Source: an uncultured Planctomycetaceae bacterium
GTDB lineage: Bacteria > Planctomycetota > Phycisphaerae > SM23-33
Reading direction: 5' to 3'
Length of the DNA: 64,000 nt
Assembly: GCA_964401385.1 (NCBI GenBank)
Contig: CAYNYF010000005.1
Span: 5,810-69,809, forward strand
Positions 1-14,943 of this stretch are shown piece by piece. How positions within the stretch are numbered: the first letter of the stretch is position 1; every line of letters begins with the position of its first letter. The position numbers and the translations under genes are program-made. A model generated the notes under the pieces. It had not been told where the DNA came from. It was given only the letters and a program-made list of their open reading frames with translations, and did not search any database.

Positions 1-1791
1 GGGCGTGTTCGGCCAGGTCCAGGAGTGCTTGCCCCAACTGGCGGCGAAGGCGCGCTTCGTCCGAACCATCGCCCGGAAGAACCGCGGGAACGGCGGCCAG
101 CCCATCTCCGTGTTGTGGGCGCCGGTGGACGAGCGGATCAGCAGGTACGGCATCTCCCTGCGCGGGTCCAGGCTTACGTAGTTGCCGTAGTCCTGGCGAT
201 AGTAGACGTTCTCCTGGTCGGGGCGGTCGGCGTAGGCGCGGGGCGGGCCCCAGACGCCGTTGGCCCGGTTCCAACACTGGAACCCCTTGGTGAACTCCGG
301 CTGCCCCCAGCCGACCAGCCAGGAGTACAGATCCGGGCGCTCGATCTCCATCATGCCCCACACACCCATGTTCACGTCGATGCGCTGCTCGTCGATCGCC
401 CACCTGGACTTCACCCAGCGGATGAGCGCCTCCTGCCGGCGCTGGGCGAACGGCCGCCACTTGCCGTGCTCGATTCCCTTGAGCGTGGCGTAGGCGTCGT
501 TGATGCCCATCCAGTACGACATGGGCTGCTCGTCGGACGGGGTGAGGATGATGTGGTTAAACGGGCTGTTGGTCGACGTCGGCTGGGGATAACTGGACCA
601 GTCGTTCTTGTGCGAGACCTGGAGCCGCGCCGGCTTGGCCAGCGAGTCGGGGCAGTACTGCACGATCACGTCGTAGCGCAAGGGGCGCGGGCCGAGCGGC
701 TGATCGGCCCAGTAGGAATGCCACTGCTCCAGATGGGTCTGCTTGTCGCGGCCGACCTGGCGGACGATCTGCTTGTACATGACCGGCTCCGGCGGGGCGA
801 CCTTTTCCTCGATGGGACCAGCGGTGTTGGCCTGGGTCAGATCGGTGGTGTTCGCAACGCCGTTGACGCAGGTGACCACGGCGTAGTAGCCCCGGCCGGG
901 CTTGCCGACCATGTGCACGTACACGCCGGTGCCGGGCGGGACGGACTGCTTGCCGTCGACGCCGACGCGCATCACCCGAAATTCCTTGTCCAGCACCGAC
1001 CGCCCGGTCTCGCCGATGGGCCAGCGGATAACAGTCCGCGTGTTGATGCACGAGCCGGGCACCAGCTCGCCCAGCAGCTTCGCGGCGCCGATGCTGGCGG
1101 GCGTGATGGGCTTGTCGTGGCGATACACGCGGTAGCGAATCTCGCGCTTCTCGTCGTCGGGGACGATCGCCTCGGCGCTGTAGGACTTGATCTTCTTTTT
1201 CAGCTCGACCCAGCGGAACGCCTCCTTGCCCTCGCAGAGGTCTTCGATCTCCTTGAAGGTGATGAACACCTGCCCGCTGCGATACAGCGCCCGCACGCCG
1301 GCAACCTGCTCGGGCGGGTCCTTCAGCTTGCCCTCATAGGTGATTTCAAGGATGGTTCCATTGCGGTCGTAGCGAGGGGCGCTGCGGAGCAGAAGCGAAA
1401 CCACTTTCTTGGGCGAGCCGGCCTGGCGGCGGACGACGTCGGTGACGTCGAACCAGCGATAGTACGGCGGCGCCAGTTGCAGCGGCCGGTCGGCGAGCTT
1501 GACACCGCCTTGCTCGTCCCGGCTTTCGACCGCGACCGCGTCGAAGCCACGGTCGTACGAGCCACTGTTCCGCCGGAAGAGCAGCCGCGCGCAGTAAATC
1601 TTCGCCCGCCGGGGCAGGGCCGACAGGTCGAAGACCAGCAGCCGGCCCTGGCTGCCGAGCAGCTCGTATTTCAGCGCCTTGGGGTGCTGGAGCCGCCCCG
1701 AGACGCCCCAGCGCTCGACCACCACGTCGGCCCGCGCCGAAGCGGCCGCCAGGAGCAGCAGCCCAATGGCAATCGGCCCGGCCCGTCTCAT
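1..1791 (-). CDS. Secreted hypothetical protein, partial (runs off the window start); paralog of the next gene
   Basis: Read by hand from the reverse complement: ATG at 1789-1791 (plus-strand cat), no stop down to position 1. The product begins MRRAGPIAIGLLLLAAASARA (signal peptide). It shares blocks with the 1788-3695 product, e.g. PPGTGVYVHMVGKPGRGYYAVV versus PPGTGLYVHNPAKPGKRYYAVV, and GQVFITF versus GQTFITW. Its ATG overlaps the upstream gene's TGA (ATGA coupling). Missing from the ORF track because it exits the window. The track's 25..2100 + ORF is its antisense. Confidence 0.6.
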   Translation of the reverse strand, partial: MRRAGPIAIGLLLLAAASARADVVVERWGVSGRLQHPKALKYELLGSQGRLLVFDLSALPRRAKIYCARLLFRRNSGSYDRGFDAVAVESRDEQGGVKLADRPLQLAPPYYRWFDVTDVVRRQAGSPKKVVSLLLRSAPRYDRNGTILEITYEGKLKDPPEQVAGVRALYRSGQVFITFKEIEDLCEGKEAFRWVELKKKIKSYSAEAIVPDDEKREIRYRVYRHDKPITPASIGAAKLLGELVPGSCINTRTVIRWPIGETGRSVLDKEFRVMRVGVDGKQSVPPGTGVYVHMVGKPGRGYYAVVTCVNGVANTTDLTQANTAGPIEEKVAPPEPVMYKQIVRQVGRDKQTHLEQWHSYWADQPLGPRPLRYDVIVQYCPDSLAKPARLQVSHKNDWSSYPQPTSTNSPFNHIILTPSDEQPMSYWMGINDAYATLKGIEHGKWRPFAQRRQEALIRWVKSRWAIDEQRIDVNMGVWGMMEIERPDLYSWLVGWGQPEFTKGFQCWNRANGVWGPPRAYADRPDQENVYYRQDYGNYVSLDPRREMPYLLIRSSTGAHNTEMGWPPFPRFFRAMVRTKRAFAASWGKHSWTWPNTP

Positions 1792-3695
1792 TTCGAAGCC
1801 TCCTGGGCGCTCTGGCCTTCGGCGGGCCCGCCTGCCTCCGGCAGGTGGGCAGGCGGCAACTGGGACGGCCTGGCGATCTTCACCACCAGCGGCCCGCCGG
1901 AGAGCTTGAGCTTCTCCAGCGTCATGAGCCCGTGGGCGTCCACGATCACCTCGCCGCTCTGGGCCGGGGCGGTCTTGCCGCGCCTGTCGGGCAGGGAGAC
2001 GGCCGAGAAGGCCAGCTTGTCGCCGGGCTTCGGTTTGAACCTGCTGAGCCGGCGCGGCGTCAGGTCGAAGGTGCTCGCCCGGCCGGTGATGGTGATCTGA
2101 AAGCCGTCCGGGGCGTCCTTGATATCCTTCCAGGCGTAGACGGTGTTGGTCTGGCCGCCGCCTTCGCCCTCCTTGTCCAGCGAGGAGTTGGCGAAGGCCG
2201 GAACGGGCGTGTCGCGGCGGATGTCCAGTCCCCGCCACAGTCCGGTGTAGCGGTCCGGCGGGGCCAGGGTGCCGCCCCAGGCCCAGTGGGCGTACAGCGG
2301 CTGGCGGGCCTTATGCATGGCCGAGTAGAGCCGCCCGCGGCCCTTGCCCCAACCCTTCACCCGGCCCCAACTGCCGCCCTTGCAGACGAACAGCGGCAGG
2401 TCCCTGGCCGCATTTTCCAGCACCACCTTGTCCAGCTCGGCCCAGGCCCACTCGCCCCGGCCCTTATCGTCGGTGATCTTCGCGTCCTTCTCGCCCCAGG
2501 CGCGGGCGAACTTGCGGATGGACTTGCGGTCGAGCAGGCGGGCCTCAAAGCCGGTGACCAGCACGTATGCGAACTCGTCCGGGTAGCTCAGCGCCATCAT
2601 GGCCGCGCCGTCCCCGCCGACGGGGATGATCCGGTCCGGATCGATCGGGAGCTTCCTCTTGGCCCAGGCCAGAAAGGCGAGGATGCGCTTCTGGGTATGA
2701 TTGCTCACGCGGCCAGCCTTGGCGTCCTTGCCAGCGGCGAGGGCGTCGTTGTAGCCGTACCAGCCGCTGAAGGGCCAGTCGTGCGGGGCGATCTGCACGC
2801 TGCCGGCCATGTACTTGGCGTTCGGCTTGGCGTAGGAGTAGTTGCCGCTGTGGAAGTACAGCTCCACCGGAGCGGGCTTCTTGACCTCCGGCCTGCCTGC
2901 CTCCGGCAGGTAGGCAGGCGGCACGAGCACGGACCAGTTGAAATACATGTTCGGAAGCGGCGACAGCGGCGGGGCCGTCCACTGGACGTAGACCTTTCGC
3001 CTGCCGGGGTAGTCGAAGAACGGCCCCCACAGGCCGTCGCCCTGGCAGACCGGCTCGCCCGGGCCGACGGTCTCTTCGACCGGCTCGGTCAGGACGTTGG
3101 CCCTCAGCAGGCGCTCCTCGCCGCCCTCGCCGGCTAGGCGGCGGCAGACGACGGCGTAGTAGCGCTTGCCCGGCTTGGCGGGGTTGTGGACGTACAGCCC
3201 GGTCCCCGGCGGCAGCGGCCCGGCCTTTTCGTCGATGACGAAGCGCGGGATGGGACAGCGGTTCATCCGCGGATGGTCCATGTGCCACGAATACACGTAG
3301 CCGTTGTAGTTCCGCGCCAGCTCGCCCACCCGGTCGGGCTGGATCATGGCCTGGCCGATGAGGTACTCGACGTTTCGCCCGTTGACGTTGTAGCCGGATA
3401 GCGGGGCGACCTCGCCCAGCAGCTTGGCCTTCTTGAGGTTCCTGCCCGTGATCCGCTCGTCGTGGCAGTAGATGCGGTACGTCCAGGCGCCGTTTTCATT
3501 GGCGGCCTCGAGCTTGTCCTTGATTTCGCCCCAGGTGACCTTCTCGGCCGTGATCAGCGGCTCCAGCTCGCCCCAGGTGATGAACGTCTGGCCGGCGCGA
3601 TGGAAGGCGCGTATCTCACCTGCCGCCGACGCCGCCGCCAGCGCGATCGACAGGCCCGCCGCCGTAAGATACACGAAGCGCAGTTGTCTGATCAT
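1788..3695 (-). CDS. Secreted hypothetical protein (signal peptide), paralog of the previous gene
   Basis: 635-aa ORF with N-terminal MIRQLRFVYLTAAGLSIALAAASAAGE signal. AAGGAG-like RBS (aaggagatcgggcaATG) upstream. Paralogous motifs shared with the 1-1791 product. Its stop overlaps the next gene's start. Confidence 0.7.
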   Translation of the reverse strand: MIRQLRFVYLTAAGLSIALAAASAAGEIRAFHRAGQTFITWGELEPLITAEKVTWGEIKDKLEAANENGAWTYRIYCHDERITGRNLKKAKLLGEVAPLSGYNVNGRNVEYLIGQAMIQPDRVGELARNYNGYVYSWHMDHPRMNRCPIPRFVIDEKAGPLPPGTGLYVHNPAKPGKRYYAVVCRRLAGEGGEERLLRANVLTEPVEETVGPGEPVCQGDGLWGPFFDYPGRRKVYVQWTAPPLSPLPNMYFNWSVLVPPAYLPEAGRPEVKKPAPVELYFHSGNYSYAKPNAKYMAGSVQIAPHDWPFSGWYGYNDALAAGKDAKAGRVSNHTQKRILAFLAWAKRKLPIDPDRIIPVGGDGAAMMALSYPDEFAYVLVTGFEARLLDRKSIRKFARAWGEKDAKITDDKGRGEWAWAELDKVVLENAARDLPLFVCKGGSWGRVKGWGKGRGRLYSAMHKARQPLYAHWAWGGTLAPPDRYTGLWRGLDIRRDTPVPAFANSSLDKEGEGGGQTNTVYAWKDIKDAPDGFQITITGRASTFDLTPRRLSRFKPKPGDKLAFSAVSLPDRRGKTAPAQSGEVIVDAHGLMTLEKLKLSGGPLVVKIARPSQLPPAHLPEAGGPAEGQSAQEASK

Positions 3696-3729
3696 TGCCC
3701 GATCTCCTTGGCTTTCGTCAGAGCGGCGG

Positions 3730-6450
3730 CTACTTGGCGTCGCGCCAGTTCGGCCCGATGCCCAAGTCCACCTTCAGCGGGACCTTCAGCCGCATCGCCC
3801 TGGTCATTTCCTCAACAATAACTAACCCGTCCCGCTCGGCGGCGTCTCGCGGGGTCTCGAACAGCAGCTCGTCGTGGATTTGCAGCAGCATCCGCGACGG
3901 CCGGTGCTCCTCGGCCAGCCGGCGGTGAATGTTGATCATGGCGATCTTGATCAGGTCGGCCGCCGAGCCCTGGACGACGGAGTTGATGGCCAGCCGCTCG
4001 GCCAGCCGGCGGCGCTGCGCGTTGGACGAATCAACGCCGGCGATCGGCCGGCGCCGGCCGGCAAGCGTCTCCACGTAGCCGGCGGACTTAGCCTTCTGGA
4101 CGCAGGTCTGAAGGAACTCCTGGATCTTGGGGAACCGCGCCCTGTAGGAATCGATGAACGCCTGCGCGTCGCCGCGCGGAATCCGCAGCGTCTGGGAGAG
4201 CCCGTAGGCGGTCTGGCCGTAGATGATGCCGAAGTTGACCGTCTTGGCGCGGGCGCGCTGCTCGGGGTTGACCGCCTCGGGTTCGACCCCGAAGACCTCC
4301 GCCGCCACGATGCGGTGAATGTCCTGGTCGGCGTGGAAGGCCGCCGTCAGCGTCTCGTCTTCGCAGAGATGTGCCAGGATGCGCAGCTCCACCTGGCTGT
4401 AATCGGCCGACAGCAGCACGTTGGGCTCCTCGGCCACGAAGGCAGCCCGAATTTGCCGGCCGAGGTCCGTCCGCACCGGGATGTTCTGGAGGTTCGGATC
4501 GGACGAGGAGAGCCTGCCGGTGGTCGTGCCCGTCTGGTGAAAGCTGGTGTGGACCCGCCCCGTCTGCGGGTGGATGCACCCGGCCAGCCCCGTCAGGTAC
4601 GTCCGCAGCAGCTTGGTCACCTGGCGATAGTCCAGCACCAACGCCGGCACCTCGTGGTGAACGGCCAGCTCGGTCAGCACCGCCGAGTCGGTGCTCGGAC
4701 CGGTCTTGGTCCGCCGCAGGACGGGCAGCCCCAGCCGCTCGAAGAGCACCCCCGCCAGTTGCTTGGGCGAATCCGGGTTGAAGTCCACCCCGGCCGCGGC
4801 GATTATCCCGTCCCGCAGCTCCTCGGCGCGCTTGGCCAGCTTTACCTTCTGGCGGTTCAGCTCCGCCGGGTCGACGCGGACGCCGTGCCGCTCCATGCTC
4901 GCCAGCACCGGCATCAGGGCCATCTCGACGTCTTCGAACAGGCCGGCGAGCCCCTCTCGCCCCAGCCGCGGGCGGAGCAGATAGCTCAGCCGCAAGGTCA
5001 CGTCGGCGTCCTCGGCGGCGTAGACGACGACCTCCTCGACGGGCACCTCGCTCATTTTCCTCTGGGCCTTCCCCCGGCCGATGAGGTGCTCGATGGGGAT
5101 GCACTGATGATTGAGCATCTCGGCGGCCAGGGCGTCGAGCTTGAAGCTCCCGCGCTCGGCCTCCAGGACGTAGGCGGCCAGCATGGTGTCGAACATGGGT
5201 CCGGCCAGCGGGGCGCCGAAATTTTCCAGCACGATCGCGTCGTACTTGAGGTTGTGGCCGATCTTCTCCACCCGCGGATCGGCAAAGATTCCGGCGAGCT
5301 TTCCCCGCGCCAGCTCCCTCTCGAGCGTCTTTCCGCCCAGCGGCGCCGCCAGCGGGATGTAGACGGCCTCTCCCGGCCGCCAGGAAAGGGATATGCCGAC
5401 CAGGTCGGCCCACACCGGCTGGACGGAGGTCGTCTCGGTGTCGACCGCCAGACGGGAAACGTCCTTCAGCTCCTTCAGCATCGCCTCGAAGGCCTTCGGG
5501 TCATCCACGCAGCGATAGGCGAAGTCCTTGGCCGTGGTCTGCCCCGCCGGCGCGGCGGCCGCCTCCACGCCCTCGCCAACCGCGGCCGGCTCGCCCAACA
5601 GGTTCAGTCGCCCCAACAGCCGCTGGAAGCCCAGCTCGGCCAATATCAGCCCGGCCGTGGCCGCCCGCAGGCCGCGAAACTCGAATTGCGGCAGGTCCAG
5701 ATCCATCTCCACGCGGTCGTTCAGCGTCACCAGCTCCTTGGCCAGAGCCACGTCGGCGGCGTGCTTGCGGACGTTCTCGGCCAGCTTGGGGGTCAACTCG
5801 TCGGCGTGGGCGACGACGGCCTCGGCCGAGCCGAAGCGACCGATGAGCTCGACCGCCCTTTTCGGCCCCACGCCGGGGATGCCGGGGATGTTGTCGGCCG
5901 AGTCGCCGGAGAGGGCCTGAATCTCGACGGCCTTCTCCGGCGGGTAGCCCTTCAGTTGCTCCAGCCGGGCGGCGTCGATGACCTCGGACTTGGTCGGGTC
6001 GTACAGCACCACGTCGCCGCCCAGAAGCTGCTCCAGGTCCTTGTCGCGGCTGACCAGGACGATACGGACGCCGCTGTCGCCCAGCCGCCGGACGATGGTG
6101 GCCATGATGTCGTCGGCCTCGGCGCCGGTCTTTTGCAGCAGCGGCACGCCCAGGGCCTGGACGACCTGGAAGATCCGCTCGATCTGCGGGGGCAGGTCCT
6201 CCGGCGGCTTGGCTCGCTGGGCCTTGTATTCGGGATAAATCTCGGTTCGGTGCAGGTGTTCCCGGCCGCTGTCCATGGCCACGGCCAGGTAATCGGGCTT
6301 TGCCTCGGCGATGAGCTTCAACAGCATGGAGGTGAACACGTAGGTTGCCCGCGTCGGCTCGCCCGCGGGGCTGGTCAGGTCGCGGAAAGGGGCGTAGTAG
6401 GCGCGGAAGATCTGCCAGTGCCCGTCGACAATATAGAAGGACTTTGACAA
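3730..6450 (-). CDS. polA: DNA polymerase I
   Basis: 906-aa product with a 5'-3' exonuclease N-terminus (FYIVDGHWQIFRAYYA), 3'-5' exo region and Pol A-family motifs (DYSQVELRILAHL, KTVNFGIIYG). Apparent TTG start at 6448-6450 with GGGAGAG RBS. Confidence 0.95.
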   Translation of the reverse strand: MSKSFYIVDGHWQIFRAYYAPFRDLTSPAGEPTRATYVFTSMLLKLIAEAKPDYLAVAMDSGREHLHRTEIYPEYKAQRAKPPEDLPPQIERIFQVVQALGVPLLQKTGAEADDIMATIVRRLGDSGVRIVLVSRDKDLEQLLGGDVVLYDPTKSEVIDAARLEQLKGYPPEKAVEIQALSGDSADNIPGIPGVGPKRAVELIGRFGSAEAVVAHADELTPKLAENVRKHAADVALAKELVTLNDRVEMDLDLPQFEFRGLRAATAGLILAELGFQRLLGRLNLLGEPAAVGEGVEAAAAPAGQTTAKDFAYRCVDDPKAFEAMLKELKDVSRLAVDTETTSVQPVWADLVGISLSWRPGEAVYIPLAAPLGGKTLERELARGKLAGIFADPRVEKIGHNLKYDAIVLENFGAPLAGPMFDTMLAAYVLEAERGSFKLDALAAEMLNHQCIPIEHLIGRGKAQRKMSEVPVEEVVVYAAEDADVTLRLSYLLRPRLGREGLAGLFEDVEMALMPVLASMERHGVRVDPAELNRQKVKLAKRAEELRDGIIAAAGVDFNPDSPKQLAGVLFERLGLPVLRRTKTGPSTDSAVLTELAVHHEVPALVLDYRQVTKLLRTYLTGLAGCIHPQTGRVHTSFHQTGTTTGRLSSSDPNLQNIPVRTDLGRQIRAAFVAEEPNVLLSADYSQVELRILAHLCEDETLTAAFHADQDIHRIVAAEVFGVEPEAVNPEQRARAKTVNFGIIYGQTAYGLSQTLRIPRGDAQAFIDSYRARFPKIQEFLQTCVQKAKSAGYVETLAGRRRPIAGVDSSNAQRRRLAERLAINSVVQGSAADLIKIAMINIHRRLAEEHRPSRMLLQIHDELLFETPRDAAERDGLVIVEEMTRAMRLKVPLKVDLGIGPNWRDAK

Positions 6451-6706: not shown

Positions 6707-8068
6707 ATGGCACGCGTTGTCCAACGACGTGGCACCCCACCGTACCTGCTGATCTTGTTCGTGCTGCTGTTCCTCACCGCCACGACGCTGGCGGTGCTTT
6801 TCTACGTGCGCTATGACGAGAAGATCCAGCAACTCACGACAAGCAATTCCAGGCTCCGCGATCAGAGGCGAAAGGTCAGCGACGAGAAAAAGCAGAAGGA
6901 CCAACTCATCGCGGTCATCGTCGGTCGCGACGCCGAAGGCGTCAAGGCGGACGCCGCCGCGGCCGCGGCGAAAGAGGCGCTGACCGGCCCGCACGCCAAG
7001 GCCTGGCAGAACGACGGACTGGCCGCGGCCGTCGGGGGCCTGGAGGAGCTGATCGGCGACCCGCAGACCAAGACCAGCGGTTTCCTCAAGGACATCGGCG
7101 ACCTGAATGTCCGCGTCAGCAGCCTGGAAGGAACCATCAAGCAGAAAGACGCCGCCATTAAGAACGCGCAAGGCAAATACGACAAGCTGGCGACGGACTC
7201 GGCCGCACAGCTTGCCAAGGCGCGAAACGGCTTCCAGGCGGCTCTCAAGGCCAAGGACAACCAGCTCCAGCGCGCCGTCGACCAACAGAAGACGGACATC
7301 GCCGACAAGGACCGGCGAATCAGCGTGCTCGCCCAAGAGATGGAGCAGGCACGCAACGACATCCGGGAGCGCGACCGGCTGATCCAGAAGTATCTGCAAG
7401 AGATCGCCGATCGCAGGCCCAAGGCCCAGACCGGCGCGCAGCCGCGCAGGCCCGACGGGAAGATCCTAAAGGCCCTGCTGGACCAGCAAATTGTGTACGT
7501 GGACATCGGCGAAAAGGACCACGCCAAGCCGGGGCTGCCGCTGGCGGTGTATTCTTCCCAGACGGGCATACCCGCCGACGGGGTGGGCAAGGCCCAGATC
7601 GTGGTCAACAACGTCTTCTCCACCACCAGCGAGTGCCGCATCGTCAAAGCCAAGAAGGACGACCCGATCATCGAGGGCGATCTGGTGGCCAACGTCGTCT
7701 TCGACCCGGCGCGAAGCTACAAGTTCGTCGTCGAGGGTGATTTTGATATCTACGGCGAGGGGCGGACCGACCCCCGGGCCAAGGAGTACATCCGGACCAT
7801 GATCGATCGCCTTGGCGGCAAGCTGGTGGACGAGATCGCCGTCAGCACCGACTTTGTGGTGCTGGGCGAGGAGCCCCCGCGGCCGCCCAGACCCGAGGCG
7901 GACGCTCCCCCGGGAGACTGGCAGCTCTACACCCAGAAGATGAAGAAGTACGATGACTATACCCGCATAAAGGGCACGGCCCTGCGGCTGCAAATCCCCA
8001 TCATGAACACCACCCGGTTCCTCGCCTTTACCGGGCTGGTTCCGATGAAACGACTGGTCGAGCAATAG
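6707..8068 (+). CDS. Membrane-anchored coiled-coil protein with a BRCT-like C-terminal domain
   Basis: AAGGAG RBS 7 nt before the ATG. N-terminal TM (YLLILFVLLFLTATTLAVLFYV). Long K/E/Q-rich heptad region. C-terminal block YKFVVEGDFDIYGEGRTDPRAKEYIRTMIDRLGGKLVDEIAVSTDFVVLGEEP fits the BRCT pattern (F.G...R.e....I...GGk......T..vV.Gee). Confidence 0.7.
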   Translation: MARVVQRRGTPPYLLILFVLLFLTATTLAVLFYVRYDEKIQQLTTSNSRLRDQRRKVSDEKKQKDQLIAVIVGRDAEGVKADAAAAAAKEALTGPHAKAWQNDGLAAAVGGLEELIGDPQTKTSGFLKDIGDLNVRVSSLEGTIKQKDAAIKNAQGKYDKLATDSAAQLAKARNGFQAALKAKDNQLQRAVDQQKTDIADKDRRISVLAQEMEQARNDIRERDRLIQKYLQEIADRRPKAQTGAQPRRPDGKILKALLDQQIVYVDIGEKDHAKPGLPLAVYSSQTGIPADGVGKAQIVVNNVFSTTSECRIVKAKKDDPIIEGDLVANVVFDPARSYKFVVEGDFDIYGEGRTDPRAKEYIRTMIDRLGGKLVDEIAVSTDFVVLGEEPPRPPRPEADAPPGDWQLYTQKMKKYDDYTRIKGTALRLQIPIMNTTRFLAFTGLVPMKRLVEQ

Positions 8069-8131: not shown

Positions 8132-8160
8132 AGTCCCCGTCGCCAGCGGCGGGGACTTTT
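8132..8160 (+). terminator. Intrinsic terminator-like hairpin (agtccccg...cggggact followed by tttt) between convergent genes
   Basis: 8-bp GC-rich stem, 10-nt loop, T-tract. Sits directly after the 6707-8068 CDS and overlaps the stop of the convergent 8159-9595 CDS. Confidence 0.5.
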
Positions 8161-9595
8161 ATGCGCGGCGGCGGGCGCCACGGCCGCGGAGGAGGAGGAG
8201 CGCCGCTGCCGCCAGAACCAGCAAGGCGACCGCGGCCGGCTCCGGAACGGCCGAGCCCCCCCCCAGGTAATTGTCGCCCCAGATGGTGTAATCGCCGCCG
8301 TCGATCAAACCGTCTTCGTTGAAATCGGCCTCCCCCCAGCAGCCCGGCTGAAGGCAATGGTCGGCCCATATTGTGTAGTCCCCCCCGTCGACCGCCCCGT
8401 CGAAGTTGGCGTCGCCCGGCGTGGCCGGCAGGACCACGATGATGGCGGCGTCCTGCGGGTAGCGCATGTCCACGTACCACTCCACCACGGGCGTGTCCTC
8501 CAGCCACATGGAGGGGGAGAACATGCTGTTGCCCAGGATGGCGTCCAGGTCGCCGGGCATGTCCTCGTCGGGAATGATGAACACCGCGGTGTTGCCGATG
8601 GCGAGCACGTCGCCCTCACGCCCATGACCGAGGTCCAGCGCCAGGGCGTTGAGGAACCAGCCGGGGGCTTCGCTCTGTTCGCCTCCCACCCCGCTGACGG
8701 GCAGCGTCAGCTCCGGCGTGGACTCCACGTCGATGCCGGCGGCGACGGCGAAGCTCTCCGAAACGAAGTTCGCCGGCGAGCCGGTGTCGAAGATGGCCGT
8801 GGCGGTCGCGAACGGATCCGAGGCGGTCCGGCGAATGTGGATCGGCAGCATGGGGTGCTCGCCGACGTCGACGGCCTGCGGGTCCTCGAAGAACGGCTCC
8901 AGCGTCACCGGCACGTACAGCGCCCGCGGGTCCGTCGGCGGCGGCAGCGGGCGCTGGAGCGAGCCGGCCATCACCATCAAGGTGAACCGCAGCATCTCCA
9001 GGTAGTGCGGGTCCACGTGCAGCACCCTGCCCTGCATGTTGGTCATGCCGATGATGTCGAAATCGATCCCAAGCAGGCCGCCGCCGATGGGCTCTAACGC
9101 CGCGGCCATTCGCGTCGCCGGCGACGCCGGCCCGGTGTACGGGCCGTGCAGGCCGTACAGGCCGGGGTTTTCCGGGTCGCCCGATTCGAAGGCCGTCTTG
9201 AAGTCGGCCATCATGATGTCCACCGGCTTGGTGACGGCGAAGTCCACCGTGCCGCCGAAGCCGACGTCGGTGAACTTCACCTCCGGGTACGGCTGGAGGG
9301 GAATCCCCACGCCGTCCCAGGCGGCGTAGGACTCCTGCGTGGTCATCCCCAGGATGCTGGCCGACGCGCCGGTGTCGCCGATGGCGACCCACGCCCGGCT
9401 GGGAGAGCCGAACAGATCGGCCCCGAGGTACCAGGAGCCGTCGGCCGGGTCCACCAAGCCGTACAGCAGCCCCACGTAGCCCAGCCCCACCGGGCCGGCC
9501 GCCCGGAGAACAACGTGGTCCGCCCGGGCCGGCCTCCGCCCGCCCAGAAACAAGAGCACACAGCACAGCGCGGACATGGCCGCCAAGCGCCTCAT
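8159..9595 (-). CDS. PEP-CTERM-anchored secreted protein with a pepsin-like double-DTG aspartic protease signature and two dockerin-like Ca-binding repeats
   Basis: Signal peptide. AIGDTGAS (D74) and AIFDTGSP (D270) lie about 196 residues apart, as in A1 pepsins. C-terminal DANFDGAVDGGDYTIW and EADFNEDGLIDGGDYTIW repeats. Ends with a VPEP-hydrophobic-RGRGARRRA (PEP-CTERM) tail. GGAGGA RBS. Confidence 0.8.
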   Translation of the reverse strand: MRRLAAMSALCCVLLFLGGRRPARADHVVLRAAGPVGLGYVGLLYGLVDPADGSWYLGADLFGSPSRAWVAIGDTGASASILGMTTQESYAAWDGVGIPLQPYPEVKFTDVGFGGTVDFAVTKPVDIMMADFKTAFESGDPENPGLYGLHGPYTGPASPATRMAAALEPIGGGLLGIDFDIIGMTNMQGRVLHVDPHYLEMLRFTLMVMAGSLQRPLPPPTDPRALYVPVTLEPFFEDPQAVDVGEHPMLPIHIRRTASDPFATATAIFDTGSPANFVSESFAVAAGIDVESTPELTLPVSGVGGEQSEAPGWFLNALALDLGHGREGDVLAIGNTAVFIIPDEDMPGDLDAILGNSMFSPSMWLEDTPVVEWYVDMRYPQDAAIIVVLPATPGDANFDGAVDGGDYTIWADHCLQPGCWGEADFNEDGLIDGGDYTIWGDNYLGGGSAVPEPAAVALLVLAAAALLLLRGRGARRRA

Positions 9596-10271: not shown

Positions 10272-11243
10272 ATGAGCAACGAACACGGCGAACTGTTCAC
10301 CCGGCATCCTGTCAACCCGATTTTGAGGGCTGCGGAGTGGCCGTATCCGGTCAACTCCGTCTTCAACGCCGGGGTGACCACGATGGACGGCCAGACGCTG
10401 CTGCTGGTCCGCGTGGAGGACCGGCGCGGAATGAGCCACCTGTGCGCCGCGCGGAGCGCCGACGGGGTGACCAACTGGCGCATCGACACCAAGCCCACCT
10501 TCCCCGCCGACCCGGCCAACCACCCCGAAGAACTCTGGGGCATCGAGGATCCGCGCATCAGCTTCGTGGCCGAGACCGGCGACTACCTCATCGCGTACAC
10601 CGCCTTCAGCGAGGGCGGCCCGCTGGTCGCGCTGGCCCGGACGCGGGACTTCAAGAAGTTCGAGCGACTGGGCCCGGTGACGCCGCCGGAGGACAAGGAC
10701 GCGGCCGTGTTCCCGGTGCGCTTCAACGGCAGATGGGCGCTGATCCACCGGCCATCCGCCGGGGAAATCGGCCTGGGCGCGCACATCTGGGTGTCCTTCT
10801 CCCCCGACCTGACGCACTGGGGCGATTTTCGAATCCTTCTCCGCGCCCGGCACGGCGGCTGGTGGGACGCCAACAAGATCGGGCTTTCTCCGCCGCCGCT
10901 GGAAACGCCGGAAGGGTGGCTGCTGATGTACCACGGTGTTCGCATGACCGCCTCCGGATGCATCTACAGGCTGGGGCTTGCCCTGCTGGACCGGTCCGAC
11001 CCTACCACGGTGCTTCGCCGCAGCGACGAGTGGATCTTCAGTCCCAGGGAGGTCTACGAGAGGCAGGGAGACGTCGAGCAGGTGGTCTTTCCCTGCGGCT
11101 GGGTGGTCGAGGGGGACGAGATCCGGCTTTACTACGGCGGGGCGGACACCTGCATCGCCCTGGCCACGGGCAGCCTGCGCGAGGTAATGGACCACCTGCT
11201 GGGCCTGCCGGCGTATGAGGCCCCGAAACCTCCCCCGTGCTGA
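10272..11243 (+). CDS. Glycoside hydrolase family 130 (beta-mannoside phosphorylase/hydrolase family, 5-bladed beta-propeller)
   Basis: 323-aa product with GH130/DUF377-type motifs (NPIL, EDPRI, MYHGV, LYYGGAD). GGAGG RBS. Confidence 0.8.
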   Translation: MSNEHGELFTRHPVNPILRAAEWPYPVNSVFNAGVTTMDGQTLLLVRVEDRRGMSHLCAARSADGVTNWRIDTKPTFPADPANHPEELWGIEDPRISFVAETGDYLIAYTAFSEGGPLVALARTRDFKKFERLGPVTPPEDKDAAVFPVRFNGRWALIHRPSAGEIGLGAHIWVSFSPDLTHWGDFRILLRARHGGWWDANKIGLSPPPLETPEGWLLMYHGVRMTASGCIYRLGLALLDRSDPTTVLRRSDEWIFSPREVYERQGDVEQVVFPCGWVVEGDEIRLYYGGADTCIALATGSLREVMDHLLGLPAYEAPKPPPC

Positions 11244-11264
11244 CAAGGCACAGGCGAGACAGCA

Positions 11265-12707
11265 TCAACGCTCGGCCAGGGTGGCAACGTATTCGCTGAG
11301 CATCTTCGCGTAGCTCGCCGCGGCCGGGCCGGGCTGGACTCGGCGAGTCTCGCCGGCCATCGACCGGTGCAGTTGGTCCAGGGAGGTTTCCTCCTCCAGC
11401 ATGGCCCGGGCGAGGATGGCGGCCCCGAAAGCGCTGATCTCGGGCTCGGTCGGCAGCGTCACCGGCCGGCCGACCACGTCGGCGACGATCTGGGGGGTGC
11501 ATCGGCTGCGGGCGCCGCCGCCGCACATGATCAGCCGACGCGCCGGGCAGCCCGCCACCTCCAGCCAGCCGATCTGCCGCGCCAGCTCCATGCACAGGCC
11601 CTCCACGGTCGCGCGGAGCAGGTGGGCCCGCCCGTGGGCGAGCTTCAGCCCGTGCACGCTGCCGGAGGTCGGGCGCCCCCCCCCGCCCGTGCCGGACAGG
11701 AACGGCCACAGCCTCAGTCCGTCGGAGCCCGGCGGAATCGAATCGATCACCTTGTCGATCGCCTCGGGCGATTCGCCCTCCAGAGCGGTCATCGCCAGGG
11801 CCCAGCGAAAGGCCGAGCCGCCGACGACCAGCGAGAGCATCTGCCCCCATCGCCCCGGCAGGACGTGATCGCACACCCACGCCGACGGCACCACCGGGCT
11901 CATCAGCCGGTCGGTCACCGCCAGCAGGGCCCAGGCCGTCCCCGCCCCGAACATGACGTCGCCGGCGTCGATCGCGCCGCAGCCGAGGGCGGCGGCGTAC
12001 TGGTCGTGCACGGCCGGTCCGACGGGAATGCCGGCGGGCAGGCCCGTCAACTCGGCGGCCTCGGCGCTCAGCGGCCCGGCCGCCTGCCGCGCCGACAGCA
12101 AGTCGGGAAGCTGCTCGGCCCGCAGGCCCATCAGCTCCAGCACGTCCGGGTCGGCCTGGCGGAGGGAGGGATTGTACAGGCAGCAGATGCTCAGCGACGA
12201 GCCGTCGTGGGCCCCCCGCCCGCACAGCCGCCGCACGATGGTGTCGCCCACGAAGCCCACCCGGTTCGGCCAGGCGAGCAGCTCCGGCCGGCGCCGCCGC
12301 AGCCAGAGAAGCTGCCCCAGGGAGATGCCGCTTCGCCCGTGGCCCAGGCGGGAGGCGAAGTACTCGCTGCCCATCCGCTTCGTCAGTTCCCGGTCGAAAG
12401 GCTGTCCGCGCGGGTCCATCCAACTGATTACCGACCCCAGGCAGGTCCCGTCCTCAGCGCGGATCTGCATGGCCGCGCCCTGACTGGAGACGCCCACCGC
12501 CCGCACCTCACCCGGCCTGGCGCCGCCGGCGGCCTGGCGAACGGCCTCCAGCGTCGCCTGCCAGATCCGCTCGATGTCCTGCTCCACGCCGCCGTCGGGG
12601 GTGTGAACCAGCGGCACGGGCGCGGACCCCCTGGCCGCGATCACCCCGTCGGCCTCGACCAGCAGGGCCTTGACGTTGGTCGTTCCCAGGTCCAGTCCCA
12701 GCAGCAT
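11265..12707 (-). CDS. FGGY-family carbohydrate kinase (xylulo-/ribulokinase-like)
   Basis: N-terminal LGLDLGTTNVKA motif; 480 aa; typical FGGY length and C-terminal domain. Confidence 0.85.
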   Translation of the reverse strand: MLLGLDLGTTNVKALLVEADGVIAARGSAPVPLVHTPDGGVEQDIERIWQATLEAVRQAAGGARPGEVRAVGVSSQGAAMQIRAEDGTCLGSVISWMDPRGQPFDRELTKRMGSEYFASRLGHGRSGISLGQLLWLRRRRPELLAWPNRVGFVGDTIVRRLCGRGAHDGSSLSICCLYNPSLRQADPDVLELMGLRAEQLPDLLSARQAAGPLSAEAAELTGLPAGIPVGPAVHDQYAAALGCGAIDAGDVMFGAGTAWALLAVTDRLMSPVVPSAWVCDHVLPGRWGQMLSLVVGGSAFRWALAMTALEGESPEAIDKVIDSIPPGSDGLRLWPFLSGTGGGGRPTSGSVHGLKLAHGRAHLLRATVEGLCMELARQIGWLEVAGCPARRLIMCGGGARSRCTPQIVADVVGRPVTLPTEPEISAFGAAILARAMLEEETSLDQLHRSMAGETRRVQPGPAAASYAKMLSEYVATLAER

Positions 12708-12710
12708 CGC

Positions 12711-14120
12711 CTAAACCTCAACGTATTCAGCGCCCAGCATCTCGGCGGCGATGGCAAGCCGGCCGCGGGCGTCGCCGAAGCACACGGCCAAGTGGTGCGG
12801 GCCGCCGGCCCGGGCATAGGCCGTCAGGAACTCGCGCACGTCGCCGGGCGGGCTCATCTTCGAATGCGGCACGGCCAGTTGCGGCAGCGGGCCGAAGTCC
12901 TCGATCGTCATCGGCGAGGCGATGATCCGCCATTTCTGCCCGGCCGCGAGCGTCAGCGCCGTCAGCGTCGCCTCGCCGGGCTGGAAGCTGCACGCCAGCG
13001 CCAACTGCCGCCCGCGAATCGGCACCAGCGACTTCTTGCGGGCGACCATGCACACCTTGCGGTCCTTCCGGGCCATGGCCACGTTGGCCTCGCCCATGTG
13101 GCTGACCAGCACGGCGTTGCCGGCGAAGTCGATGGTGAAGATCTCGCTGAAGCTGGCCGGCGGGTGCAGCCAGCCCAGGAACGCCGACCCGGCCGCGGAG
13201 ATCAGGTCGCCCTCCCCGCCGAAGCCGACGGCCTCGCCCAGCAGCCGGCTGGCGGCGACGAACGGCAGCGTCTCCACCCTGTCGTCCTCGCCGAAGGCCA
13301 GGAACTGATACGTCAGCGCGTCCAGCCGGTTGTCGCCGACCATTCCCCGCAGGGCGATCTCCGCCCGGGCGGTGGCAGACAGATCTTCGTCGGTGACGTC
13401 CGCGGCGATCTCGTAGGCGTCGCGATACTCCGCCGTCAGCCGGGCGACGTCGGCCGGGGCGGCCTGCCCGGCTCGCCGGACGTACTCAGCCACGGTCAGT
13501 GCCTGCCACTGACAGCCGAGCGTCGTGGCCATCATCGTCGTATCCAGGCCGAAATCGCCCATGCCCGGAAACGGATAGCCCAGCAGCCCCAGCCGCGCCC
13601 TGCCCAGCCGGCTGACCGCGTAGCCGGCGCGGATGTGGTCGGTCAGGGCGGCCACGCCCGCGGCATCGTCCAGGTGGCTGGTCACGTAGCCGAACGGCAC
13701 GCCGGAGCGGACCAGCACGTTGCACAGGTCGTGCGTGCCGTGGACGCCGTGATTGGCGGTCAACTCGGCGTCGCCGTAGGAAGCGTCCACCGCGTACAGC
13801 TCCTGCGTGTTCCAGACCACGATCGGCAGGCGCGTCCGCTTCAGCGCCGGGGCGGAAATCAGGCTGGGCGAGTACGAAAGCAACACCACCAGCAGGACGT
13901 CGACCCCGTCAGCCTCGAAGCCCGCCACCGTCCGCTCCACCGCCTCGCGAGTGAAGACCGCCCCGCCGAAGCGGACCTCGGCCACGTCGGCCAGGGCGGG
14001 CATGAGCCGCTCGCGGACGAACTTCTCCCGGCCCTGGCGAAGCTGGGGTCCGGACCTCTCATAAAACTCCAGCGTCAGCCCCAGCAATCCAACTTTCGGT
14101 CGACTGGAATTTTCCGGCAC
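12711..14120 (-). CDS. L-arabinose isomerase family protein (AraA-like)
   Basis: Blocks alignable to E. coli AraA (GEGDLISAAGSAFL vs GEGDWKTAALLRIM; LVSHMGEANV vs LVLGSHMLEV; AGGPHHLAV vs AGGAHHTVF). GTG start with AGGAGAG RBS. Confidence 0.75.
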   Translation of the reverse strand: MPENSSRPKVGLLGLTLEFYERSGPQLRQGREKFVRERLMPALADVAEVRFGGAVFTREAVERTVAGFEADGVDVLLVVLLSYSPSLISAPALKRTRLPIVVWNTQELYAVDASYGDAELTANHGVHGTHDLCNVLVRSGVPFGYVTSHLDDAAGVAALTDHIRAGYAVSRLGRARLGLLGYPFPGMGDFGLDTTMMATTLGCQWQALTVAEYVRRAGQAAPADVARLTAEYRDAYEIAADVTDEDLSATARAEIALRGMVGDNRLDALTYQFLAFGEDDRVETLPFVAASRLLGEAVGFGGEGDLISAAGSAFLGWLHPPASFSEIFTIDFAGNAVLVSHMGEANVAMARKDRKVCMVARKKSLVPIRGRQLALACSFQPGEATLTALTLAAGQKWRIIASPMTIEDFGPLPQLAVPHSKMSPPGDVREFLTAYARAGGPHHLAVCFGDARGRLAIAAEMLGAEYVEV

Positions 14121-14151
14121 GGCGGTCTCTCCTGACAGGTTGGCGGCTGGG

Positions 14152-14943
14152 TCAGTCCTCGATTTCCTTGCGAACCGGCTCCAGGAAGCTGCGGGGAACG
14201 TCCCTCGCCAGCAGGTCGTTGAAGACCTCGGCCACGGCCGAGGCGTATGTCTCGAGCAGCCGGCGGCCCAGCTCGGCGGTCGCGCGGGTGGCGCGGCCTT
14301 CCACGGCGTCGGGCAGGTCGGTCACCGAGGGCACGCAGAAGACGCCCTCTCGCCCGCGAAGTGCCGGGAACGGAAACTCCCGGCCGTAGAGATCGGTCGG
14401 ACCGTCCACGGCCGCGGACATGTTCACCAAGTCCGGGCGCAGGGCCAGCATCAGCGAGGTCTCGATCAGGCCGGCGTGCGTGATCGGCTCGGCGGCGATT
14501 CTGCCGGCTACCTCGGCGGCCATCTCGTACGGGCTGACGTCAACGTACATGGCGTGCGTCCCCCGCCAGCGCAACTGCCACACGGCCAGTTGGGCCGCCG
14601 GCAGGTTGCCGTGGCCCTGGACGAAGACAATCTTGCGGAAGCCGAGCCGGTGAAGGTCGCCCGCCACGTCGACCAGTTTGGCCAGCAGCGTCGCCGGCGA
14701 GACGCCCGCCGACGCGAACGGCCGGGCCCACTCCACCACGCTGTACCGCACCGTCGGGAAGATGGCCACTCTCTCGGCATCACTGGCGGCCGCGGCGCGG
14801 GCGAGGATGCCCTCGACGATCAGGCTGTCGGTCCCGCAGGGAAGGTGCGGGCCGTGGGCCTCCAGCGACCCCATCGGAATGACCCCGACGCCGCCTTCGG
14901 CCGCCCGACGCAACTGGATGTAGTTGGCTTGTTCGGCTTCCAC
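14152..14943 (-). CDS. Creatininase-family amidohydrolase
   Basis: VIPMGSLEAHGPHLP metal-binding motif typical of the creatinine amidohydrolase family. Confidence 0.8.
   Translation of the reverse strand: MEAEQANYIQLRRAAEGGVGVIPMGSLEAHGPHLPCGTDSLIVEGILARAAAASDAERVAIFPTVRYSVVEWARPFASAGVSPATLLAKLVDVAGDLHRLGFRKIVFVQGHGNLPAAQLAVWQLRWRGTHAMYVDVSPYEMAAEVAGRIAAEPITHAGLIETSLMLALRPDLVNMSAAVDGPTDLYGREFPFPALRGREGVFCVPSVTDLPDAVEGRATRATAELGRRLLETYASAVAEVFNDLLARDVPRSFLEPVRKEIED

Follow-up and report, generated by a model that had tools for sequence, protein, structure and literature searches.

In a 64,000-nucleotide stretch of DNA from an uncultured Planctomycetaceae bacterium (GenBank assembly GCA_964401385.1, contig CAYNYF010000005.1, positions 5,810 to 69,809 of the forward strand), referred to below as the window, the gene encoding DNA polymerase I (polA) and two paralogous genes, which we designate B and A, follow one another on the minus strand in the order polA, B, A. 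Results of our analysis indicate that the conserved unit is the B-A pair, and not polA together with the pair, and that the central third of A and of B is predicted to be an alpha/beta-hydrolase domain of the esterase D type, in which the Ser-His-Asp triad appears to have been lost. The reading that we favour, at about even odds (a probability of roughly 0.5), is that A and B are exported, act together, probably as a heteromer, no longer work as classical serine esterases, and recognise decorated polysaccharides or present them to true esterases and lyases. An earlier note on this DNA, made from the sequence alone, had described the two products as secreted proteins of unknown function, a description that can be narrowed, on fold, superfamily and alignment evidence, to esterase-D-fold proteins devoid of the triad; the association with polA, to which the same note drew attention, was found outside the window only in three close relatives.

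The features of the pair, in window coordinates or in residues of the product, are as follows.

1788..3695, minus strand: gene B, 635 aa, ATG start, complete within the window
3621..3695, minus strand: putative signal peptide of B, residues 1-25 (MIRQLR, hydrophobic stretch, ASA/AG), read from the translation
B residues ~28-230: N-terminal beta domain with the HRAGQTFITW motif
B residues ~231-495: esterase-D-like alpha/beta-hydrolase core
B residues ~496-610: C-terminal beta sandwich with the DLTPRR motif
2604..2618, minus strand: elbow of B, G360-G-D362-G-A364 (GGDGA), Asp codon 2612-2610
1788..1791, minus strand: ATGA overlap of the B stop (TGA 1790-1788) and the A start (ATG 1791-1789)
1804-1799, minus strand: Shine-Dalgarno sequence AGGAGG of gene A, 7 nt upstream of the A ATG
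1..1791, minus strand: gene A, first 597 of ~736 codons, 3' end outside the window
1729..1791, minus strand: putative signal peptide of A, residues 1-21 (MRR, hydrophobic stretch, ARA/D), read from the translation
1327..1728, minus strand: A-specific N-terminal beta domain, residues 22-155 (RWG..H; FDLSALP..A.IY.ARL), from the alignment; model strands at 21-153
352..366, minus strand: degenerate elbow of A, G-V-W478-G-M (GVWGM), with no nucleophile, from the translation

Fold and catalytic residues of A and B

The paralogy of A and B, proposed in the earlier note from two shared motif blocks, is borne out by BLASTP (E 1e-32, 31% identity over 370 residues), and both blocks are present, the first as VPPGTGVYVH..GKPGRGYYAVV versus LPPGTGLYVH..AKPGKRYYAVV, and the second as RSGQVFITFKEIE versus RAGQTFITWGELE. 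The alignment of the A-family and B-family profiles (probability 100%, E 2.5e-103, 554 columns) pairs residues 28-623 of B with residues 146-733 of A, and by this alignment A appears to consist of a body like that of B with an extra beta domain, ~135 residues long, in front of it. The extra domain is absent from B but present in B-type relatives of ~740 aa; B-type relatives of ~960 aa have an added C-terminal CBM9. Among nine of these N-terminal domains, one gave a weak match to CBM96 (best 17.7 bits, cut-off 26) and four others gave sub-threshold matches to TGFb_propeptide (E 0.05-0.2) on the segment FDLSALP..A.L, and the CBM96/DNRLRE identity of this domain may be treated as a lead only.

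In both proteins a basic n-region is followed by a hydrophobic stretch and then by an A-x-A site, an N-terminus of Sec-type look, which agrees with the description of both as secreted in the earlier note. Residues 1-25 of B have a predicted local distance difference test (pLDDT) value below 50 in the structural model, and the A family has conserved Cys residues in its C-terminal domain (NCSLD, CTVDLTPRRC), which fits an extracytoplasmic protein. Export of both A and B seems probable from these features.

The AlphaFold2 models built from the family alignments (pLDDT 83 and predicted template modelling score, pTM, 0.85 for B; pLDDT 90 and pTM 0.90 for a full-length A orthologue) predict the esterase D type of fold for the central third of each protein. 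The lower-ranked fold matches were mycoloyltransferases, CE1 ferulic acid esterases, antigen 85, MPT51, acetyl-xylan esterases and S9 peptidases, and Foldseek was concordant with them. Homology searches with both products returned hundreds of homologues, yet no Pfam or NCBIfam family: in the direct Pfam scan neither A nor B matched PF00756 or PF00326 even at E <= 1, a chance-level match to DUF5538 being the only other outcome, and no NCBIfam model was matched by either of them. The best hit of the B-orthologue profile among the PDB sequences was esterase 8z91, at E 0.37 only.

The family PF00756, named 'Putative esterase', includes CE1 feruloyl and acetyl-xylan esterases as well as antigen 85 mycolyltransferases. 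With esterase D, S-formylglutathione hydrolase and PF00756 the proteins share an HG-type oxyanion stretch (LYFH282SG), the P-H-D after beta4, the G-W-Y-G-Y-N loop and the [DN]R[IV] lead-in to beta5, and canonical members of the A/B superfamily do pass PF00756. They differ from it in that A and B themselves give no match and lack the Ser nucleophile, the acid and the His, while esterase D is devoid of both flanking domains, the N-terminal beta domain that carries the superfamily's most conserved motif (HRAGQTFITW) and the C-terminal beta sandwich with DLTPRR. We conclude that A and B resemble, and descend from, alpha/beta hydrolases of the esterase D/PF00756 type, from which they have diverged below the hidden Markov model threshold and with the loss of the Ser elbow, the acid and the His. 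In the case of the prolyl oligopeptidase family S9 (PF00326), Ser-type relatives of A and B pass the family model, but A and B do not, and the N-terminal domains in their models are beta sandwiches of ~130-200 residues (as judged from secondary structure only) with no beta-propeller match. Membership of A and B in family S9 was rejected in view of the missing match and the missing triad.

The superfamily was surveyed by a scan of one genome per species, which yielded 224 relatives; 73 loci were fetched (labelled L001 and so on, with P numbers for related proteins), and 146 distinct family open reading frames (ORFs) were aligned. Most relatives come from metagenome-assembled genomes (MAGs) of Planctomycetota labelled as Phycisphaerae, Planctomycetales, Brocadiia and Thermoguttaceae, and distant members come from Acidobacteriota, Verrucomicrobia, Armatimonadota, Chloroflexota-type MAGs and Chromatiales. 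Among 1.84 billion cluster representatives, a profile search found 2,443 members at E <= 1e-3, 1,740 at 1e-10 and 775 at 1e-30; the superfamily is small. Many paralogues occur per genome. One planctomycete MAG (CAZNSB01) has at least 12 loci (L012, L016, L017, L019, L022, L029, L030, L032, L042, L051, L053 and L063), and a tandem array may comprise as many as five genes of the family; this expansion is among the large lineage-specific ones in these genomes.

The distant, usually solitary members of the superfamily have a canonical elbow, [DN]R[IV]xxxG-x-S-M-G-G-x-G, an HGWGG oxyanion motif and an Asp after beta7, and one sub-clade (L068, L071, L075) has in addition a D/G-H-[ST]-W motif after beta8. 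Five distant relatives with N- and C-terminal motifs like those of A and B pass the PF00756 Esterase model (24-35 bits, cutoff 22), and three of these five also pass PF00326. The corresponding elbow in the B clade is G-G/S/A-D-G-A-A with an invariant Asp: G360, D362, G363 and A364 do not vary in 34 orthologues of B, and the Asp is found in 100% of the 31 Asp-type genes. In the A clade the elbow is G-x-W-G-M-M-E, the Trp and the Gly being nearly invariant in 37 A-family sequences, and hhalign pairs W477 of the A orthologue P0121 (W478 of A in the window) with D362 of B. An ungapped count from the conserved Arg (R+7) puts D362 at the position of the Ser, and the B model, where a strand ends at residue 360 and a helix starts at 362, is consistent with this placement. 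The column of the triad acid, the assignment of which, like that of the His, relies on a multiple alignment of divergent loops, contains D in 96% of the Ser-type genes, G or A in the B-type and T or F in the A-type genes. In the same alignment no conserved His follows beta8 in the B or the A clade, and H470 of B is replaced by D or G in its orthologues. The motif HRAGQTFxT is ~100% conserved in Ser-type and first-gene proteins and relaxed in second-gene proteins (H 50%, Y 29%).

Taken from these alignments, both A and B appear to have lost the Ser-His-Asp triad, while their solitary relatives keep the canonical Ser elbow and the Asp, and A and B would lack classical esterase activity. A retained fold with a replaced nucleophile is not without parallel. 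MPT51/FbpC1, of the antigen 85 family, is a non-catalytic protein. In it, as in DPP6 (Asp for Ser) and DPP10 (Gly for Ser), the fold was kept and the nucleophile was replaced, and these proteins work as binding or auxiliary subunits. In DPP6, an Asp at the Ser position, as in B, accompanies the loss of activity, and in DPP10 the Ser is replaced by Gly and the His-Asp pair is kept (PMC4350108). The latter differs from A and B, which appear to have lost both of these residues; moreover, in sequence terms DPP6, DPP10 and MPT51 have only the fold in common with A and B, and they are not conserved bacterial gene pairs. A and B would thus follow the pseudoenzyme pattern of a retained fold with replaced catalytic residues, the likeness to DPP6 and DPP10 being one of logic only.

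The B-A pair and its position next to polA

The order of a B-like gene followed directly by an A-like gene on the same strand is widespread among the fetched loci. It was found for 22 of 26 evaluable Asp-type genes and for 24 of 26 other B-like genes, which have non-canonical elbows, that is in 46 of 52 evaluable cases altogether, across clades that are only ~30% identical. Canonical Ser-type genes in the fetched loci are never directly followed by an A-like gene. The elbow types of the two partners match by sub-clade: B genes with GGDGAA go with A genes with GxWGMME or SSGWAW, those with GCRGGASGSGAL / GCRGGASGSGALHLG go with LLHFG, those with GYWGGTAAL / GYWGGTAALQYG with GQFAGWA, and those with GAAGSGALHLG with SHYG. 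In a Mantel test of 45 pairs the Spearman r between the distance matrix of the first genes and that of the second genes was 0.72, a value reached by 0 of 999 permutations, none of which exceeded 0.21, and the nearest neighbour was identical for both genes in 26 of the 45 pairs. Many paralogous pairs sit within single genomes, which shows that the pairs duplicate as units. The conserved two-gene module is the B-A pair.

The junction of the two genes is tight. The ATGA overlap described in the earlier note is present in the window, where it is formed by the TGA of B and the ATG of A, and is shared with the closest locus, L001; elsewhere the gaps between B and A are 8-27 nt. In the relative L081, a third paralogue (12284-14524, 746 aa, A-type, with the elbow SHWGMWE) follows A and is itself followed by fmt and rsmB. 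By analogy, the DNA that lies beyond the left edge of the window is likely to be arranged as in L081.

The features that link the pair to the upstream gene are the following.

3730..6450, minus strand: polA, DNA polymerase I, 906 aa, TTG start, TAG stop 3732-3730
3696..3729, minus strand: polA-B spacer, 34 nt, with the Shine-Dalgarno sequence AAGGAG at 3709-3704, 8 nt before the B ATG

The upstream gene encodes DNA polymerase I, with a 5'-3' exonuclease, a 3'-5' exonuclease and a family A polymerase in one chain: the product scores 1026.6 bits against NCBIfam PRK05755 (cutoff 720) and 859 bits against TIGR00593, and matches all of the Pfam families 5_3_exonuc_N, 5_3_exonuc, DNA_pol_A_exo1 and DNA_pol_A. 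Its TTG start is supported by the equal length (906 aa) and the N-terminus M[SA]KSFYIVDGH of the polA product of L081, which is 75% identical to it across the 906 aa in both.

The pair does lie, as noted earlier, on the strand of polA and 34 nt downstream of it (the B ATG begins 34 nt after the TAG), and a 34-nt spacer is also found in L001 and L081. The arrangement of polA, a gap of ~34-45 nt, B and A is common to L001 (polA 93% identical), L081 (75%), where the genes upstream of polA match the window too, and L006 (70%). In L016 (polA 77% identical), polA and the first B-type gene lie ~5.3 kb apart, with other genes in between, and in all more distant relatives the pair stands behind AAA_14/DUF4143, a GDSL-like protein, SDRs, PQQ-repeat proteins or a CN_hydrolase+apiosidase gene. 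The adjacency to polA is best explained by descent within one lineage and not by function, as it does not extend beyond the close relatives. A scan of the spacers, a weak one in which planctomycete promoters were not covered, found no terminator-like or sigma-70-like site. Because the 34-nt gap has no terminator-like site, read-through from polA in this lineage is plausible, as is the co-transcription of B and A with polA that the earlier note had proposed.

Glycan context and competing explanations

Fusions and neighbours of the superfamily genes suggest where the pair may act. Many B-type proteins have a C-terminal CBM9, and some family members are labelled 'sugar-binding protein' in annotation for this reason. 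Protein P0242 (1403 aa), found in the search of cluster representatives, combines an A-type nucleophile-less body with a CBM9 and a GDSL/SGNH esterase (GDS motif ALFGDSLTG), which may be a hint, of the Rosetta-stone type, that the triad-less module and a true esterase work side by side. Other fusion partners in the superfamily are NPCBM, BACON, type I dockerin, PKD/He_PIG, beta-helix and Calx-beta domains. Genes for CBM9+GDSL esterases lie near the pair in L005 and L079, and other neighbours encode GDSL-like proteins of 750 aa with faint CBM96 or Disaggr matches, pectate-lyase-like beta-helix proteins, an FGE-sulfatase-domain protein and a CN_hydrolase+apiosidase protein. Between polA and a five-gene array of B- and A-type genes, L016 has a gene for a heparinase II/III-like lyase (3300-5345, plus strand; PF16889 151 bits, PF07940 100 bits). 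The glycan-related neighbourhood of the pair in L079 also contains a BrnT toxin/CopG-like antitoxin pair (2274-2785, minus strand).

The contextual evidence, to which the GH130, FGGY sugar kinase and AraA-like genes on the other side of polA in the window also belong, all points to extracellular glycans as the probable target. The CBM9 on B-type relatives, the P0242 fusion and the nearby CBM9+GDSL genes recall the CBM-bearing extracellular carbohydrate esterases of Planctomycetota; A and B of the window differ from these in having no recognisable CBM or SGNH domain and no esterase active site of their own.

The history of the pair, as we see it, would begin with a solitary serine hydrolase that had GxSMGG, an Asp and a His, and whose N- and C-terminal beta domains were those still found in A and B. 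Its duplication would have produced a first-gene/second-gene pair, and from both copies the Ser-His-Asp triad would have disappeared. B, the first gene, would have kept an Asp, invariant today, at the place of the former Ser or beside it, and would have retained the superfamily-wide HRAGQTFxT, and the second (A) would have been left with no nucleophile (a Trp in its place) and with a relaxed N-domain motif. The two products, presumably translationally coupled in the window and probably expressed by read-through, either from polA or from a promoter within its 3' end, would probably form a fixed-ratio heteromer outside the cytoplasm, where they would act on complex polysaccharides and serve true esterases and lyases as partners in recognition or as scaffolds.

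Several points weigh against this reading. The placement of D362 at the Ser position depends on the alignment: MAFFT and HMMER delete G-x-S-M and put D362 four residues later, although the B elbow has no Ser under either alignment. The 34 orthologues of B share many invariant polar residues (D362, H32, E208, H282 and D306), and so strong a conservation, together with the CBM fusions, is as expected of an enzyme, in which a new active site may have arisen. Four Asp-type genes (L009, L015, L023 and L026) have no A-like neighbour, and the signal of co-diversification is in part that of a shared species history. The signal peptides of A and B were recognised by eye alone, and the physical association of B with A is one that we infer from sequence.

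An alternative that takes up the invariant residues is that B is an active, non-canonical alpha/beta hydrolase with Asp362 as the nucleophile, in which H32, H282, D306 and E208 replace the lost His and acid, and that A is a subunit without catalytic function that confers specificity or regulates B. An Asp nucleophile at the elbow is found in haloalkane dehalogenases and epoxide hydrolases, and D362, which is invariant in the 31 Asp-type genes, has G360 and A364 at the Nu-2 and Nu+2 positions and lies where the model strand ends (360) and the helix starts (362). Other first-gene clades have Ser or Thr in the MAFFT column of D362, in which A-like genes are gapped; HRAGQTFxT and E208 are conserved at ~100% in Ser-type and B-type genes and relaxed in A-type genes; and the CBM9 fusions are typical of enzymes. 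However, the acid and the His of the triad are both gone, and the known alpha/beta hydrolases with an Asp nucleophile still require a His. An Asp is also a common helix N-cap, and its conservation may be structural, MAFFT and HMMER do not place it at the Ser but four residues after it, and in DPP6 the change of Ser to Asp at this very position goes with the loss of activity (PMC4350108). We regard this alternative as doubtful. If it were true, the pair would be a new kind of carbohydrate-active enzyme. Its more elaborate form, an obligate heteromer in which the esterase D fold was rebuilt around the Asp nucleophile of B and A serves substrate recognition on esterified or decorated polysaccharides, is a speculation that we consider quite improbable; it would imply a new CAZy-type family, of which each genome of Phycisphaerae-like planctomycetes may contain a dozen loci or more.

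A and B could also be independent tandem duplicates, that is redundant or differently specific secreted binders or enzymes that form no complex, as multi-paralogue tandem arrays are common (L014, L016/L017, L019, L022, L039), some genomes have at least 12 loci, and the four Asp-type genes mentioned above lack an A-like neighbour. This seems unlikely in view of the first-then-second order in 46 of 52 evaluable cases from clades ~30% identical, the co-diversification of the partners, the second gene being always nucleophile-less and Ser-type genes never being paired, and the start and stop codons that overlap or lie 8-27 nt apart. A functional tie of the pair to DNA polymerase I, through a shared role in DNA metabolism or shared regulation, would be suggested by the 34-nt gap with its Shine-Dalgarno sequence and no terminator-like site, and by the same arrangement in three relatives with polA 70-93% identical. 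The probable signal peptides, the predicted esterase fold and the glycan-type fusion partners of A and B speak against it, as do the intervening genes in L016, in spite of a polA that is 77% identical, and the unrelated genes in front of the pair in all more distant relatives, and such a tie is extremely improbable. A DNA-related role deduced from the adjacency to polA was rejected on synteny.

Under the favoured reading, that of an exported pair that recognises polysaccharides together, A and B represent a candidate new glycan-recognition or glycan-processing module. Literature searches on the family (Phycisphaerae with CBM9 and esterase; MPT51) found no paper on it or on its paired organisation. 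A family of hypothetical proteins with no Pfam or NCBIfam model is now placed in the esterase D superfamily, and its paired, apparently triad-less forms, inherited and diversifying as a unit, can be set against triad-keeping solitary relatives, which makes it a clean test case for the origin of a pseudoenzyme/partner pair from a hydrolase. Phycisphaerae-type Planctomycetota play an important part in breaking down the complex polysaccharides of the sea and of sediments, and much of the protein that they secrete is unannotated. The arrangement of polA followed by two paralogues is mostly ordinary, and the triad-less pair expanded in polysaccharide-degrading planctomycetes is a testable lead. As to annotation, our results remove a false plus-strand ORF and advise caution against deriving function from adjacency to polA.

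Coding strand and neighbouring genes

The GC content of the window is ~67%. Because DNA of this composition holds long ORFs on both strands, as the 691-aa ORF opposite A and B illustrates, ORF length alone is no evidence of coding. The reverse-complement translation of 1-1791 gives 597 sense codons and no stop, as stated in the earlier note, and the frames of A, B and polA share one coding pattern in their GC content by codon position; the plus-strand ORF gives the mirror image expected of a shadow.

25..2100, plus strand: ORF of 691 aa, antisense shadow and not a gene (mirrored codon-position GC, no Pfam match)
GC at codon positions 1/2/3, A (minus strand): 0.63 / 0.46 / 0.915
GC at codon positions 1/2/3, B (minus strand): 0.64 / 0.49 / 0.92
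GC at codon positions 1/2/3, polA (minus strand): 0.70 / 0.42 / 0.91
GC at codon positions 1/2/3, ORF 25-2100 (plus strand): 0.86 / 0.49 / 0.68

The substitutions between the window and its 93%-identical relative L001 fall mostly on the third position of the minus-frame codons, both in A (27/17/59 at positions 1/2/3) and in B (27/25/50), and the hundreds of homologues mentioned above are those of the minus-frame products. The suggestion that the plus-strand frame is an antisense shadow agrees with these results; a Pfam search with it found no match, so that it was assigned to no known family. The plus-strand ORFs 25-2100 and 1845-3137 were both rejected as genes on their codon-position GC and the lack of homologues. 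The absence of gene A from the ORF list, to which the earlier note also pointed, is real, but it is an edge effect and no annotation failure: the list omits ORFs that touch the window ends, and A, with no stop inside the window, runs off base 1. The ~140 C-terminal residues of A lie outside the window, as judged from its orthologues of ~736 aa (P0121, 736 aa and 93% identical; the proteins encoded in L002 and L005, 736 and 733 aa). An Rfam scan of the whole window gave no match.

On the other side of polA, and divergent from it, a gene at 6707-8068 (plus strand) encodes a protein of 453 aa with a hydrophobic segment at its N-terminal end, a long and charged region that resembles a coiled coil, and a BRCT match below the threshold (19.9 bits); L081 has a gene of 452 aa at the same position. 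It is followed by a gene at 8159-9595 (minus strand) for a 478-aa secreted protein with a weak Asp_protease_2 match (26.8 bits), two dockerin/EF-hand-like repeats D.N.DG.(V/I)DGGDYTIW and a tail composed of VPEP, a hydrophobic stretch and RGRGARRRA, which resembles a PEP-CTERM sorting signal. A homologous gene of 468 aa occupies the same place relative to polA in L081. Farther on, within 10 kb beyond polA, lies a sugar cluster (10272-14120) that comprises a GH130 mannoside phosphorylase-like gene (10272-11240, plus strand), an FGGY sugar kinase gene (11268-12707, minus strand) and an L-arabinose-isomerase-like (AraA-like) gene (12714-14120, minus strand), and that is followed by amidohydrolase, GFO/IDH/MocA oxidoreductase and class III aminotransferase genes.

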